From assembly GCF_003334815.1 (NCBI RefSeq), contig NZ_QOWO01000018.1: DNA of 64,000 bases; one strand, 5' to 3'. This DNA is from Escherichia coli (GTDB lineage Bacteria; Pseudomonadota; Gammaproteobacteria; Enterobacterales; Enterobacteriaceae). Numbering within the stretch: position 1 is the stretch's first letter; each line of letters begins with the position of its first letter. This document shows, in pieces, positions 42,332-50,246 of the stretch. Position numbers and translations under genes: made by a program. The notes beneath the pieces were generated by a model. The model was not told where the DNA came from and made no database searches. It saw nothing but the letters and a program-made list of their open reading frames with translations.

Positions 42332-42411
42332 CGCAACCTCGTCTCGGTATTTGGGTGGGTTACTCCGGTAAAGCGGTTAACAGGCGGCAAAACTTTAATC
42401 GCCAGCGCAAA

Positions 42412-43149
42412 TTACTCCGCGCTTACCGTTGTCACCACGCCGCTTTCCGCCACCATCGCGCTGATGACCCGCTGGCTGCTGGCGTTACGCACTTTCACCA
42501 TCTCGCCTTTGCGACCATTTTTCAGCGTCACGCCGGGCATCGAGGCGGTGATCCCCGCGCTCTGGTAAACAATCATCACCGGCTGATCGCGCCCGACCAG
42601 CACCGGAGACACCAGCTCTTCTTTGGTGATTGGCCTGCCTGGTTGCAGCGCGTGTTTACTGCTGAAACCAATCGCGTCATCGAGTTCCATCAACACCTCC
42701 CTGCGCTGGGCGCTGACGTTGTAGGGCTTCAACTCCACATCATTTGCCGTGAGCGGCGTATCGCGGGCAACCAGTGACTTTGTCATCACCACCGGCACCA
42801 GCACATCCGGGCGCACCGCCACGTTCATCTGCCAGCTTTGCGGGCAACTGACGGTGAAGTTCATCCGGTTGAGGGCGATTTCCGCAGGCGAAGTGAGCGT
42901 AACGCCGGGTGTAGTCGCACAGGGCGCGGCGGTCGCAATCTGCGAGGGAATGTAGACCTTAAAGGTGTAGTGATAGTCATGCCACTGCCGCTGTTGCGCC
43001 AGCGATTCAATTTTTTGGCTCGCGGCATTCAGCACCTGGGCGTTGACTTGTTCCCGCGCGCTGTGCTGCACGGGGTGGACGGCGGCGTAGCCCGGTAAGG
43101 CCAGCGCCAGGAGGAAATAAAACTTCCGCCTGCAAAATTGAAAACTCAT
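42412..43149 (-). CDS. lfgA: Lateral flagellar P-ring assembly chaperone, FlgA homologue
   Basis: Signal peptide plus FlgA-like C-terminal domain; ATG at 43149; divergent from lfgB. Confidence 0.7.
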   Translation of the reverse strand: MSFQFCRRKFYFLLALALPGYAAVHPVQHSAREQVNAQVLNAASQKIESLAQQRQWHDYHYTFKVYIPSQIATAAPCATTPGVTLTSPAEIALNRMNFTVSCPQSWQMNVAVRPDVLVPVVMTKSLVARDTPLTANDVELKPYNVSAQRREVLMELDDAIGFSSKHALQPGRPITKEELVSPVLVGRDQPVMIVYQSAGITASMPGVTLKNGRKGEMVKVRNASSQRVISAMVAESGVVTTVSAE

Positions 43150-43178
43150 AAACCCTTTCTCATCAGTCACTTAAAAAA

Positions 43179-43193
43179 TGGCACGGCGATTGC
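43179..43193 (+). promoter_or_regulatory. Sigma-54 promoter upstream of lfgB
   Basis: Perfect TGGCAC-N5-TTGC (tggcacggcgattgc), about 40 bp upstream of the proposed lfgB start. Confidence 0.7.
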
Positions 43194-43230
43194 TTAGCGT
43201 ATGCGGATTGAAGCAGGAGTGACGCAGGAA

Positions 43231-43566
43231 ATGGGGATCAGTTTTCAACAGGCATTGGGAGTACATCCGCAGGCAGTGAAGTTACGTCTTGAGAGGACCG
43301 AGCTACTGACTGCGAATCTGGCGAACGTCGATACGCCAAATTTCAAGGCTAAAGATATTGATTTTGCCAGGGAGATGCAACGGGCAAATAACGCGGCGGT
43401 GGATGTCCAGTACCGCGTGCCGATGCAGCCGTCGGAAGATGGCAACACCGTGGAGCTGAACAGCGAACAGGCGCGGTTTTCACAAAATAGTATGGATTAT
43501 CAAAGCAGTCTGACCTTTCTGAATCTGCAAATCAGCGGCATCAGAGAGGCCATTGAAGGGAAATAA
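43231..43566 (+). CDS. lfgB: Lateral flagellar proximal rod protein, FlgB homologue
   Basis: ORF 43201..43566; ATG at 43231 chosen because the ORF-track start overlaps the promoter/TSS; FlgB-like N-terminus. Confidence 0.75.
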   Translation: MGISFQQALGVHPQAVKLRLERTELLTANLANVDTPNFKAKDIDFAREMQRANNAAVDVQYRVPMQPSEDGNTVELNSEQARFSQNSMDYQSSLTFLNLQISGIREAIEGK

Positions 43567-43568
43567 GC

Positions 43569-44000
43569 ATGTCATTTACTGATATCTATCAGATTTCCGG
43601 CTCGGCGATGACGGCACAGACCATTCGCCTGAATACCGTCGCCAGTAACCTGGCGAACGCCGAGGCGCCTGCCGGTAGCGAGGCGCAGGCGTATAAAGCG
43701 CGCAGCCCGGTGTTTGCGGCGGTGTATCACCACAGCTTGCTGGCGGGTACACATCGTCATGCCATTGACGCTGCCAGCGTGCAGGTGCAGGACGTGCTGC
43801 AAACCGGCGGGGCGGTGAAACGCTATGAACCGCATTCACCTCTGGCGGATGCTAACGGGGATGTCTGGTATCCCGACGTCAACGTGGTGGAACAGATGGC
43901 GGACATGATGTCGGCTTCGCGCGATTTCGAAACCAATGTCGATGTGCTCAACAACGTGAAAAGTATGCAGCAAAGTTTGCTGAAACTGGGAGAAGCCTGA
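43569..44000 (+). CDS. lfgC: Lateral flagellar rod protein, FlgC homologue
   Basis: 143-aa ORF with conserved rod-protein N- and C-terminal segments. Confidence 0.8.
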   Translation: MSFTDIYQISGSAMTAQTIRLNTVASNLANAEAPAGSEAQAYKARSPVFAAVYHHSLLAGTHRHAIDAASVQVQDVLQTGGAVKRYEPHSPLADANGDVWYPDVNVVEQMADMMSASRDFETNVDVLNNVKSMQQSLLKLGEA

Positions 44001-47833: not shown

Positions 47834-47863
47834 ATAACTCACTGTATTTAAAACAGGCAGAAC

Positions 47864-48529
47864 GTGAAAAATTATCTCTGGCTGGTGGCACTGCTTCCCC
47901 TGCTTAGCGGGTGTGAATCGCAGGCCATTCTGGTCAAAAAAGACGACGCATACTTTGCGCCACCGAAAACCGAAGCACCGCCTCCGGCAGACGGGCGTGC
48001 TGGCGGTGTATTTGAAACTGGCTACAACTGGTCGCTGACCGCCGATCGGCGGGCTTATCGCGTGGGCGATATCCTGACGGTGATCCTCGAAGAATCCACC
48101 CAGTCGAGCAAACAGGCGAAAACCAACTTCGGCAAAAGCAACACCGTCGATATCGGCGCACCGACCATTTTTGGTCACACTAAAGATAAGCTTTCCGGCT
48201 CTATCGACGCCAACCGCGACTTTGACGGCAGCGCCACTTCCCAGCAGCAGAACAGCCTGCGCGGGGAGATCACCGTTTCCGTCCATGCGGTGCAGCCCAA
48301 CGGCATCCTGGAAATTCGCGGCGAGAAATGGCTCACCCTCAACCAGGGCGATGAGTACATCCGCTTAAGCGGCCTGGTGCGCGCCGACGACATCCAGAAC
48401 GACAACTCGGTTTCCTCCCAGCGGATCGCCGACGCCCGTATCTCCTATGCCGGACGTGGCGCGTTAAGCGACGCCAATGCCGCAGGCTGGCTGACGCGGT
48501 TGTTTAACCATCCTCTGTTCCCGATTTAA
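47864..48529 (+). CDS. lfgH: Lateral flagellar L-ring lipoprotein, FlgH homologue
   Basis: GTG start; lipoprotein signal with lipobox LLSGC; FlgH-like. Confidence 0.8.
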
Positions 48530-48543
48530 TGCCGGAGAGTGCA

Positions 48544-49644
48544 ATGCAAAACTGGATAAAAACAGTGGTCGTAGCCGTAAGCCTGGCGCTACCCGGCGTG
48601 GTGCTGGCGCAATCGCTGGAGTCACTGGTTAACGTACAGGGCGTGCGTGAAAACCAACTGGTCGGCTACAGCCTGGTGGTCGGCCTCGACGGTACCGGTG
48701 ATAAAAACCAGGTCAAATTCACCAACCAGACCATCACCAATATGCTGCGCCAGTTTGGCGTGCAGTTGCCGAATAAAATCGACCCGAAGGTGAAAAACGT
48801 CGCCGCAGTGGCGGTGAGCGCCACGTTGCCGCCGATGTACTCGCGCGGGCAGACCATTGATGTCACCGTCTCGTCGATTGGCGATGCGAAAAGTATTCGC
48901 GGCGGCACCTTGCTGTTGACGCAGTTGCACGGCGCAGATGGTGAAGTGTATGCCCTGGCGCAGGGCAGCGTGGTGGTCGGCGGGATGAACGCCACCGGGG
49001 CTAGTGGCTCCAGCGTAACGGTTAATACTCCAACCGCCGGGTTAATTCCTAACGGCGCAACGGTGGAGCGCGAGATCCCCAGCGATTTTCAGATGGGCGA
49101 CACTATCACCCTCAACCTGAAACGTCCGTCGTTTAAAGACGCTAACAACATTGCGGCGGCGATTAACGCCTCGTTTGGTGGCATTGCCACCGCACAGAGT
49201 TCCACCAACGTTACCGTGCGTGCGCCTACCAGCCCCGGTGCGCGGGTGGCGTTTATGTCGCAACTGGACGATGTGCAGGTGCAGGCAGAGAAAATCCGCG
49301 CTCGCGTGGTGTTTAACTCGCGTACCGGCACGGTGGTGATGGGCGATGGCGTTGCGCTGCACGCGGCGGCGGTGTCGCACGGCAGTTTGACCGTTTCGAT
49401 TAACGAAACCAGCAACGTCAGCCAGCCGAATTCCTTTGCGGGCGGGCGCACGGCGGTAACGCCGCAGAGCAATATCGCGGTGAATCATGCCCGTCCGGGC
49501 GTGGTGAGTTTGCCGGAGTCGAGCAGCCTGAAAACGCTGGTCAATGCGTTGAACAGTTTAGGTGCGACGCCGGATGACATTATGTCAATTTTGCAGGCGC
49601 TGCATGAAGCGGGCGCGCTGGATGCCGACCTGGAGGTGATCTGA
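48544..49644 (+). CDS. lfgI: Lateral flagellar P-ring protein, FlgI homologue
   Basis: Signal peptide [23 protein letters not shown]; FlgI-like; ATG at 48544. Confidence 0.85.
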
Positions 49645-49943
49645 TGAAAGTTAACGGCAGCGGCGGGATTGACGGCAGCGATGCGTTAATGGGGCCGAAG
49701 GTTCAGGCCAATGATATCAGGCAGGCCGCCGAACAGTTTGAGGCGATTTTTTTACGCAACATGCTGAAAGAGATGCGTAAAACCAACGAGTTGTTTGATT
49801 CGAAAGATAACCCATTTAACAGCGATTCGGTGCGCATGATGCAGGGATTTTATGACGATGAGTTGTGTAACACCCTGGCGCAGCAGCACGGGATTGGGAT
49901 TGCGGCGATGATTGTGAAGCAGTTGTCGCCGAAGCATAGGTGA
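49644..49943 (+). CDS. lfgJ: FlgJ homologue, rod-binding domain only (no muramidase domain)
   Basis: 99-aa ORF with FlgJ N-terminal motif (AAEQFEAIFLRNMLKEMR). Confidence 0.7.
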   Translation: MKVNGSGGIDGSDALMGPKVQANDIRQAAEQFEAIFLRNMLKEMRKTNELFDSKDNPFNSDSVRMMQGFYDDELCNTLAQQHGIGIAAMIVKQLSPKHR

Positions 49944-49951
49944 AGCTCCGA

Positions 49952-50175
49952 CGTTCGGTGCCTGATGCGACGCTGGCGCGTCTTATCAGGCCTACGAGTC
50001 CGCGCATATTTTTATGTTTGCGCCCGTTTGTAGGCCGGATAAGGCGTTTACGCCGCATCCGGCGTTCGGTGCACGGTGCCTGATGCGACGCTGTCGCGTC
50101 TTATCAGGCCTACGAGTTCGCACATATTTTTATGTTTGTGCCCGTATGTACGCCGCATCCGGCGTCCGGCACCCG
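49952..50175. repeat. Tandemly duplicated REP-containing unit (two about 110-bp copies)
   Basis: Unit cgttcggtgcctgatgcgacgctggcgcgtcttatcaggcctacgagtccgcgcatatttttatgtttgcgcccgt... repeated with a few substitutions and an internal deletion in copy 2. Confidence 0.75.
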
Positions 50176-50246
50176 GTTTACGGAATTTAAGAATCCCCAT
50201 CTTCACGCCGCTTTTAACCGGCACGATTTACCGGTAAGGATCCAAC

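Follow-up and report, generated by a model that had tools for sequence, protein, structure and literature searches.

We analysed a stretch of 64,000 nucleotides (nt) from Escherichia coli (contig NZ_QOWO01000018.1 of assembly GCF_003334815.1; hereafter the window), which is the Flag-2 locus for lateral flagella and matches Flag-2-bearing E. coli chromosomes. Compared with strain FORC_081 over 41.5 kb, the window has 10 differing positions, none of them inside the promoter boxes described below, and Flag-2 was found in 676 of 5,426 complete E. coli genomes. Our subject is three intergenic sites that resemble sigma-28 promoters. They lie upstream of lfgM (annotated as an anti-sigma-28 factor; 42053-42331, minus strand), of lfgK, the first gene of lfgK-lfgL-lafW (50247-53561, plus strand, with gaps of 14-16 nt between the genes), and of lafA (lateral flagellin; 54948-55862, plus strand). 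The presumed reader of these sites, LafS, is annotated as a sigma-28 paralogue of the FliA/WhiG family and is encoded at 59753-60469 on the plus strand, so that the locus carries both a sigma factor and its anti-sigma factor. The lfgM, lfgK and lafA units are orthologues of the class-3 units flgMN, flgKL and fliC.

Reading of the intergenic regions revealed a common unusual -10 box upstream of the three genes (ACCGCTTT, GCCGCTTT and GTCGTTTT). The original prediction had marked weak candidate promoters upstream of lfgM and lfgK. In the 80-bp gap between lfgA and lfgM, the exact TAAAGTTT that it had noted on the minus strand is present at 42390..42397 and forms the -35 box of a putative P_lfgM. 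The octamer AACCGCTT, taken there as a -10 region at a spacing of 11 nt, also exists, but the register had to be corrected: the -10 box is ACCGCTTT (42370..42377, minus strand), 12 nt after the -35 box. Upstream of lfgK, the proposed TAAGAATC-N11-GCCGCTTT occurs at 50188-50214 and is one and the same site as TTAAGAAT-N12-GCCGCTTT (50187-50214), with the -35 box at 50187..50194 and the -10 box at 50207..50214 on the plus strand; this site matches TTAAG-N15-GYCGYTTT exactly. The third site, of the same type, has its -35 box TTAAGTTT at 54876..54883 and its -10 box GTCGTTTT at 54895..54902 on the plus strand upstream of lafA, with a spacer of 11 nt in Escherichia and 12 nt in most other genera. 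We placed transcription starts by the register of FliA, whose -10 box occupies -15 to -8 (PMC12784957). The predicted starts would lie near 42362 on the minus strand for P_lfgM (a 5' untranslated region (5' UTR) of about 31 nt to the lfgM ATG at 42331), near 50221-50223 for P_lfgK (lfgK ATG at 50247) and near 54910 for P_lafA (lafA ATG at 54948).

A motif conserved in orthologous Flag-2 loci

We then investigated orthologous loci. One genome per species was scanned with LfgK, which gave about 28 Flag-2 loci from other Escherichia, Citrobacter, Phytobacter, Pseudocitrobacter, Leminorella, Mangrovibacter and several Enterobacter-like taxa. Identity across these loci is 45-98% for LfgK and falls to 37% for LfgM. 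In every locus containing the region, TTAAG(W)(W)T-N12-G(Y)CG(Y)TTT is found upstream of lfgM, lfgK and lafA. Conservation is concentrated in the two boxes, at about 1.6 bits per position, while spacer and flanking positions hold 0.4-0.8 bits. Start codons follow the -10 box at anything from 29 to 94 nt, and the motif is therefore not a translation signal. The -35 box is the exact TAAAGTTT at lfgM in Escherichia and Citrobacter, and TTAAG(W)(W)T at lfgK, at lafA and in the clade consensus; at lfgK, TTAAG is invariant in 29 loci.

The lfgM site is conserved in the 19 loci with a detected lfgM and in 4 divergent loci. In these 4 most divergent loci (Mangrovibacter and Enterobacter sp. CC120223-11), tblastn found no LfgM; a site of 20-23 bits lies downstream of lfgA and upstream of lfgN, suggesting that this promoter marks a highly diverged anti-sigma gene. 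Its position (loci L025-L027 and L030) is about 2640-2685 on the minus strand. The gap between lfgJ and lfgK holds repetitive extragenic palindromes (REP) and bacterial interspersed mosaic elements (BIME) in E. coli, a different palindromic repeat in Pseudocitrobacter and neither in E. whittamii. Among these three, similarity restarts just upstream of the lfgK -35 box, and this is also where the REP and other insertions of different species stop.

We compiled a position matrix of 34 distinct sites, leaving out all Escherichia-like loci, and scanned both strands of the window with it. This is the check that the original prediction had proposed, namely to derive a motif from orthologous lateral-flagellar promoters and to rescan. 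The three highest-ranking matches are the lfgK site (50187-50216, 27.6 bits), the lafA site (54876-54904, 24.5 bits) and the lfgM site (42368-42397, minus strand, 21.5 bits). The next independent match, inside lafC (57809-57837, minus strand), reaches 13.8 bits, which is background level, as random windows have a mean maximum of 14.7 bits. All three E. coli sites combine the motif, a spacer of 12 ± 1 nt, sense orientation and a late lateral gene downstream, 29-94 nt from the gene start, and such sites occur nowhere else in the window. Neither the matrix scan nor the control-region matching described below found a LafS-type site upstream of lafB, lafT, lafZ, lfgB or lfgL. When the degenerate (IUPAC) pattern TTAAG-N15-GYCGYTTT was searched with one mismatch, an extra match at 16354-16381 was rejected: it lies inside an open reading frame (ORF; 16323-16796), and 0.4 such matches are expected by chance.

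Over the 533 kb of orthologous loci, 92 matches score 13 bits or more; 67 of them fall in the 130 nt that precede lfgM, lfgK or lafA, and 4 of the remaining ones are at the expected lfgM position between lfgA and lfgN. In some Citrobacter loci, the A/T-rich lafW-lafA region contains scattered matches of 14-20 bits whose position is not conserved. For 54 regions that precede lfgM, lfgK or lafA in loci that are not Escherichia-like, the best match to the 16 positions of the pattern averages 13.3 (minimum 11). Shuffled copies average 9.5/16 and reach 12 or more in 1.3% of cases, and control regions upstream of lfgB, lafB, lafZ, lfgL and lafT have means of 9.3-10.0/16 with a maximum of 11; taken together, neither kind goes beyond 11-13 of 16.

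Comparison with FliA promoters and with other lateral systems

The classical FliA consensus, TAAAGTTT-N11-GCCGATAA, does not single out the E. coli sites, which match it no better than chance. The 8-mer TAAAGTTT occurs 2 times in the window, against 1.8 expected. The lfgM site, read with N12, matches 12 of 16 consensus positions, as one of 24 such sites in the window, and the lfgK site matches 10 of 16, as one of 552. A scan with this consensus was therefore rejected as a detector, since it does not separate the sites from background; it also found no canonical FliA site anywhere in Flag-2, including the region upstream of the flagellin gene. The description of the sites as weak thus holds against the classical consensus but not against the clade's own, to which they are strong matches. 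The original prediction had offered divergent LafS specificity or chance as explanations, and the orthologue motif, the rescan and the controls favour the former.

FliA promoters have their -10 box GCCGATAA at -15 to -8; the adenine at -11 flips out of the duplex into the cavity of the sigma-2 specificity loop and nucleates melting, and R97 reads the upstream GC (PMC12784957). We compared 52 E. coli FliA motifs obtained by chromatin immunoprecipitation sequencing (ChIP-seq; PMC4183435) with 35 distinct Flag-2 sites. Of the FliA sites, 48 of 52 have A at -11; none of the 35 Flag-2 sites does, the equivalent position being C (26 sites) or T (9 sites). At -9/-8, Flag-2 sites have TT where FliA sites have AA or AT. 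The -10 boxes are mutually poor matches: those of Flag-2 score -1.7 bits under the FliA matrix, in which FliA's own score 12.2, and those of FliA score -4.3 bits under the Flag-2 matrix, in which Flag-2's own score 12.6. A matrix from 25 strong E. coli FliA ChIP-seq sites, which themselves have a mean of 18.6 and a minimum of 6.8, gives the three Flag-2 sites of E. coli only 5-6 bits as whole promoters.

The layout is nevertheless shared with the FliA class-3 promoters (P_flgM, P_flgK and P_fliC in E. coli and Salmonella). Both types have a bipartite -35/-10 arrangement of near-equal spacing, their -35 boxes are A-rich and end in G, their -10 boxes have a G.CG core, and both precede equivalent genes for an anti-sigma factor, hook-associated proteins and flagellin. 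The FliA system likewise has an internal flgM promoter behind flgA and a flgK promoter behind the flgB-J operon. The differences are a -10 box of G(Y)CG(Y)TTT in place of GCCGATAA, with a pyrimidine for the -11 A and TTT for TAA, so that the CGA core of FliA-type boxes is absent at lfgM, lfgK and lafA; a -35 box that reads TTAAG rather than TAAAG at lfgK, at lafA and in the clade consensus; and, with the boxes aligned on their G, one additional base in the spacer (30 of the 34 training sites have 12 nt, and FliA's 11 nt is confined to Escherichia lafA and a few other sites).

The presumed reader differs as well. LafS contains regions 2, 3 and 4, as a group-3 sigma factor of the FliA/WhiG family. 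It matches E. coli FliA (6PMI) with E = 1e-30, is about 30-35% identical to it, and has other residues at DNA-contact positions. In a clustered-protein search, LafS-type proteins form a separate group, with about 20 representatives above the bulk of FliA. We aligned this clade with E. coli and Pseudomonas aeruginosa FliA. The specificity loop of LafS is one residue shorter (RRY-G.PD..F versus (R/K)YD....G..F, with D66 replaced by G; RYGLPDEGF in LafS, RYDALQGTAF in FliA), DW.PRSV(R/H)R..R of FliA becomes DWRPR.LRQ(K/Q).H (R101 to Q, R104 to H or N), and the sigma-4 recognition helix reads (E/D)AR(I/V)CQ.NK(K/Q) instead of ESRVSQLHSQ (S224 to A). LafS of the window carries this clade signature (RRY-G.PD..F / DWRPR.LRQ / ARICQ). 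The substituted positions are ones reported to contact the -10 and -35 elements in FliA (PMC12784957). The substitutions thus fit an altered promoter specificity, as a correlation rather than a proof. Many E. coli database entries are LafF-LafS fusions of 400 aa (a FliL domain plus sigma domains; P0001 to P0008 are examples), which implies that some strains have a frameshift where lafF meets lafS; in the window, lafF and lafS are separate genes (59266-60469).

Further loci encoding LafS-type sigma factors were fetched from other lineages. The same type of -10 box is found upstream of the lateral flagellin genes in all of them, and often upstream of fliD or flgK. The sites are TTCAGTTT-N11-GTCGTTTT at lafA of Shewanella sp.; TTAAGGCG-N12-GTCGCTTT, TTAAGGGG-N11-GTCGTTTT and TTCATTTT-N12-GTCGCTTT at flagellin genes of the Metapseudomonas otitidis type, Photobacterium and locus L059, respectively; TACATTTC-N12-GTCGCCTA and TCAAGTCT-N12-GTCGCTTC at lafA1 and lafA2 of Aeromonas hydrophila; and TTAATCAT-N12-ACCGCCTC at lafA (read by eye) and TAAATATT-N12-GTCGCCTT at fliD_L of Vibrio parahaemolyticus. 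None of these eight sites has the CGA core, and the lafA sites of A. hydrophila and V. parahaemolyticus share a G(Y)CG(Y)(Y)T -10 box with Flag-2. The -35 half is weaker outside Enterobacterales; the enterobacterial box is far stronger and more uniform than in the Vibrio, Aeromonas and Plesiomonas systems. A LafS-type site precedes fliD_L in V. parahaemolyticus, Shewanella and Photobacterium, unlike E. coli lafB, which has a sigma-54-type promoter and no LafS-type site. In Shewanella, TTTAGAAA-N12-GTCGCCTT (locus L053, 5128-5157, minus strand) faces a gene for a FliB-like flagellin lysine methylase (FliB_C) divergent from lafA, which suggests that flagellin modification is co-regulated with flagellin; in Aeromonas, a FliB_C gene (L061, 2783-3946) adjoins lafA1.

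The lateral late genes of V. parahaemolyticus, A. hydrophila and Plesiomonas shigelloides belong to an orthologous system with an orthologous sigma factor. RNA-seq of a lateral sigma-28 deletion in P. shigelloides showed reduced fliC_L, flgMN_L and flgKL_L (PMC11242183). The sigma dependence in these three species was shown genetically, whereas in E. coli it is predicted.

The setting of the sites in the Flag-2 locus

The locus runs from lfhA to lfiM (24338-30567, minus strand) and lafK to lfiJ (30954-37416, plus strand), through variable cargo genes between lfiJ and lfgN, to lfgN, lfgM and lfgA (41612-43149, minus strand; lfgN annotated at 41612-42040), lfgB to lfgJ (43231-49943, plus strand), lfgK-lfgL-lafW, lafZ on the minus strand between lafW and lafA, lafA, and lafB, C, D, E, F, S, T and U (56153-62271, plus strand). 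We predict that lfgM-lfgN (41612..42331, minus strand) is an operon under P_lfgM, that lfgK-lfgL-lafW is an operon under P_lfgK, and that lafA with its terminator (54948..56017) is a monocistronic unit under P_lafA; this strong intrinsic terminator (55994-56017, plus strand) has a 10-bp stem followed by a T-run. RefSeq flags lfiI of FORC_081 as a pseudogene that is interrupted by an internal stop. The lfiI gene of the window (35642-36979) departs from the FORC_081 sequence at 35774 and is an unbroken ORF of 445 codons; the export ATPase is therefore intact here.

Sigma-54-type -24/-12 elements are found upstream of other genes. The element TGGCACGGCGATTGCT (43179..43194, plus strand) upstream of lfgB matches 11 of 11 specified positions and is the predicted class-2 promoter of the lfgB-J operon, which ends just before P_lfgK. 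Another, TGGCACGCCTTTTGCC (56106..56121, plus strand), precedes lafB. As lafS sits in the lafB operon, its synthesis is predicted to depend on LafK and sigma-54. A further element, CGGCACGCTTATTGCA (41519-41534, minus strand), lies upstream of a hypothetical gene (40555-41484), which together with a 2.4-kb glycosyltransferase gene (37932-40376) makes up the cargo that separates lfiJ from lfgN and that may therefore belong to the LafK regulon.

Many intergenic gaps of Flag-2 are occupied by REP/BIME palindromic repeats. Those at 49960..50170 (plus strand) fill the lfgJ-lfgK gap upstream of P_lfgK and are not parts of the promoter; others lie at 30740-30840, 37840-37925, 44730-44810, 46805-46845, 47665-47830, 53562-53610 and 55870-55970. 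The Rfam matches naRNA4 (50033-50110) and ES036 (55907-55949) were also found, and rayT, a REP-associated tyrosine transposase gene, is located just outside the locus (about 23617-24114). An A/T tract, AAATTTTTTTAA (54856..54867, plus strand), precedes the lafA -35 box by about 10-20 nt. This tract is kept upstream of lafA in all lineages, where profile positions 0-10 have high information content, and upstream of lfgM in Citrobacter and others. The lafA tract resembles an UP element and may act as one. The predicted lafA 5' UTR (54903-54947; TACAGGGTATCGAAACGAAAACGATTAATCCCAAGGAG...) is near-invariant across Escherichia, Citrobacter and Phytobacter, while the spacer and the upstream DNA vary. 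It contains GAAAACGA (about 54923-54931), complementary to the lafA -10 box, and may be a post-transcriptional control element.

Interpretation and the predicted late-gene circuit

We consider that the three sites are LafS-dependent class-3 (late) promoters of Flag-2, with a probability of roughly 0.8. The sequences show the motif, how it is conserved, its restriction to these positions and its departure from FliA sites. Family resemblance, gene context and the experiments in other species point to LafS as the factor that reads the three sites. Several observations weigh against this assignment. The link between motif and LafS is correlative, and another factor encoded in all loci could read the motif. 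The search for sites in the orthologues was seeded by a pattern seen by eye, although the shuffled and control-region results argue against circularity. The -35 halves in Aeromonas and V. parahaemolyticus are weak, the enterobacterial matrix giving 5-12 bits there, and the V. parahaemolyticus lafA site was itself picked by eye. In P. shigelloides, the fliD...lafTU operon also depends on FliA_L (PMC11242183), whereas E. coli lafB has only a sigma-54-type promoter; the hierarchies therefore differ between species. Finally, many E. coli strains may have a Flag-2 system that is silent or defective.

A functionless chance resemblance to the sigma-28 consensus would account for the background-level counts of 12/16 and 10/16 matches and of the TAAAGTTT 8-mer in the window. 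It would not account for syntenic conservation across about 28 species within otherwise divergent intergenic DNA, for the sites being the top three of an independently trained matrix, or for the lower scores of shuffled and control-gene regions; the comparative data refute it, and we regard it as next to impossible. Recognition of the sites by FliA, with or without LafS, would make the Flag-2 late genes part of the Flag-1 regulon, and is improbable. The -35 halves do resemble TAAAG, with an exact TAAAGTTT at lfgM, and the G.CG core of the -10 box is held in common; yet the FliA matrix gives the whole sites only 5-6 bits and their -10 boxes, scored separately, negative values, and the -11 A is absent in 35 of 35 Flag-2 sites. 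Flag-2 loci have also been reported in taxa without Flag-1, including Leminorella grimontii (De Maayer et al.; PMC6993521), and the L. grimontii locus (L016) bears the motif. A Citrobacter amalonaticus genome with Flag-2 (S646; L024) has a further flagellar locus on scaffold 9 (L037; FlgK 31% identical), in which a FliA-like gene (13112-13753) and a MotA-like gene lie close behind flgL in a layout unlike that of E. coli Flag-1.

The motif might instead be the binding site of another regulator of the locus, the ToxR-like membrane regulator LafZ or LafK, acting at sigma-70 or sigma-54 promoters. Since lafZ and lafK co-occur with most Flag-2 loci, the correlative assignment leaves a small probability for this reading. 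However, the spacing is fixed at 12 nt, the motif keeps one orientation to the gene, and both halves are sigma-28-like. No sigma-70-like promoter was called at the sites, and no sigma-54 element (GG-N10-GC; TGGCAC-N5-TTGCW) is present at the three of them, such elements being found upstream of lfgB, lafB and gene 40555-41484. The motif also occurs in Shewanella, Aeromonas and L059, where no lafZ-like (Trans_reg_C) gene was called in the fetched stretch, and P. shigelloides has no lafK, yet its late lateral operons depend on the lateral sigma-28 (PMC11242183). The conserved blocks might instead work in the RNA, by terminating or attenuating transcription behind lfgJ or lfgA or by serving as a 5'-UTR element. 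In favour of this, Citrobacter has a GCGGCG just before the lfgK -35 box that is able to pair with the CGCCGC within the -10 box, which a T-run follows. This pairing is absent in E. coli, in Mangrovibacter and at the lfgM and lafA sites, and the spacer sequence shows no covariation. At the sites, no intrinsic terminator was called, fold energies equal those of shuffles (z-scores +0.06 to +0.63) with no stable RNA fold, and no Rfam family matched, the only matches of the region being REP-derived families elsewhere. The structural reading was rejected on these grounds and is highly improbable.

If the three sites are LafS-dependent promoters, the most likely circuit, by analogy with FlgM/FliA and other species, is as follows. 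LafK and sigma-54 would drive the lfgB and lafB operons, and with them the hook-basal-body genes and lafS. LfgM would keep LafS inactive until the hook-basal body can export LfgM, and this export would free LafS. Free LafS would then fire P_lfgK for the hook-filament junction proteins, P_lafA for flagellin, and P_lfgM, renewing the anti-sigma factor and the LfgN chaperone. The sites probably respond poorly or not at all to FliA, and the distinct -10 box probably prevents cross-talk between the two flagellar regulons of a cell.

Group-4 (extracytoplasmic function, ECF) sigma factors recognize stringent bipartite promoters with a CG-containing -10 core and no reliance on a -11 adenine, and their sigma-2 'specificity loop' sets which base is accepted. 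The Flag-2 sites resemble ECF promoters in this way of working only, as LafS is assigned to group 3 by its regions. We tentatively suggest, as a possibility that we hold somewhat less probable than its opposite, that LafS-type sigma factors form their own specificity class within group 3, which recognizes G(Y)CG(Y)TTT and starts to melt DNA without the elsewhere near-universal -11 adenine, via a remodelled sigma-2 loop shorter by one residue; in cells with both systems, lateral and primary late regulons would then be orthogonal.

LafS-dependent late genes are already known in Vibrio, Aeromonas and Plesiomonas, so this kind of element is known. A text search found no published lateral sigma-28 consensus, though older papers on lateral flagella may already state one. 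The comparative Flag-2 paper has no promoter analysis (PMC6993521). Noteworthy in the present case is that the -11 adenine is missing throughout and the specificity loop of the sigma factor is remodelled, a combination that would imply insulation from FliA. To our knowledge, a LafS-type consensus has not been formalized for Flag-2 of Enterobacterales. Scans with the FliA consensus will miss LafS-type promoters, which the Flag-2-derived matrix picks cleanly. The result is a testable map of Flag-2, with sigma-54-type promoters at lfgB and lafB and LafS-type promoters at lfgMN, lfgKL-lafW and lafA, and the map applies beyond E. coli, since Flag-2 is found in many Enterobacterales. LafS appears to be a natural sigma-28 variant that dispenses with the -11 adenine, and its sigma-2 specificity loop is an obvious target. 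Two sigma-28 paralogues with mutually poor -10 boxes would give a simple sequence-level account of how late flagellar genes are kept separate in one cell.

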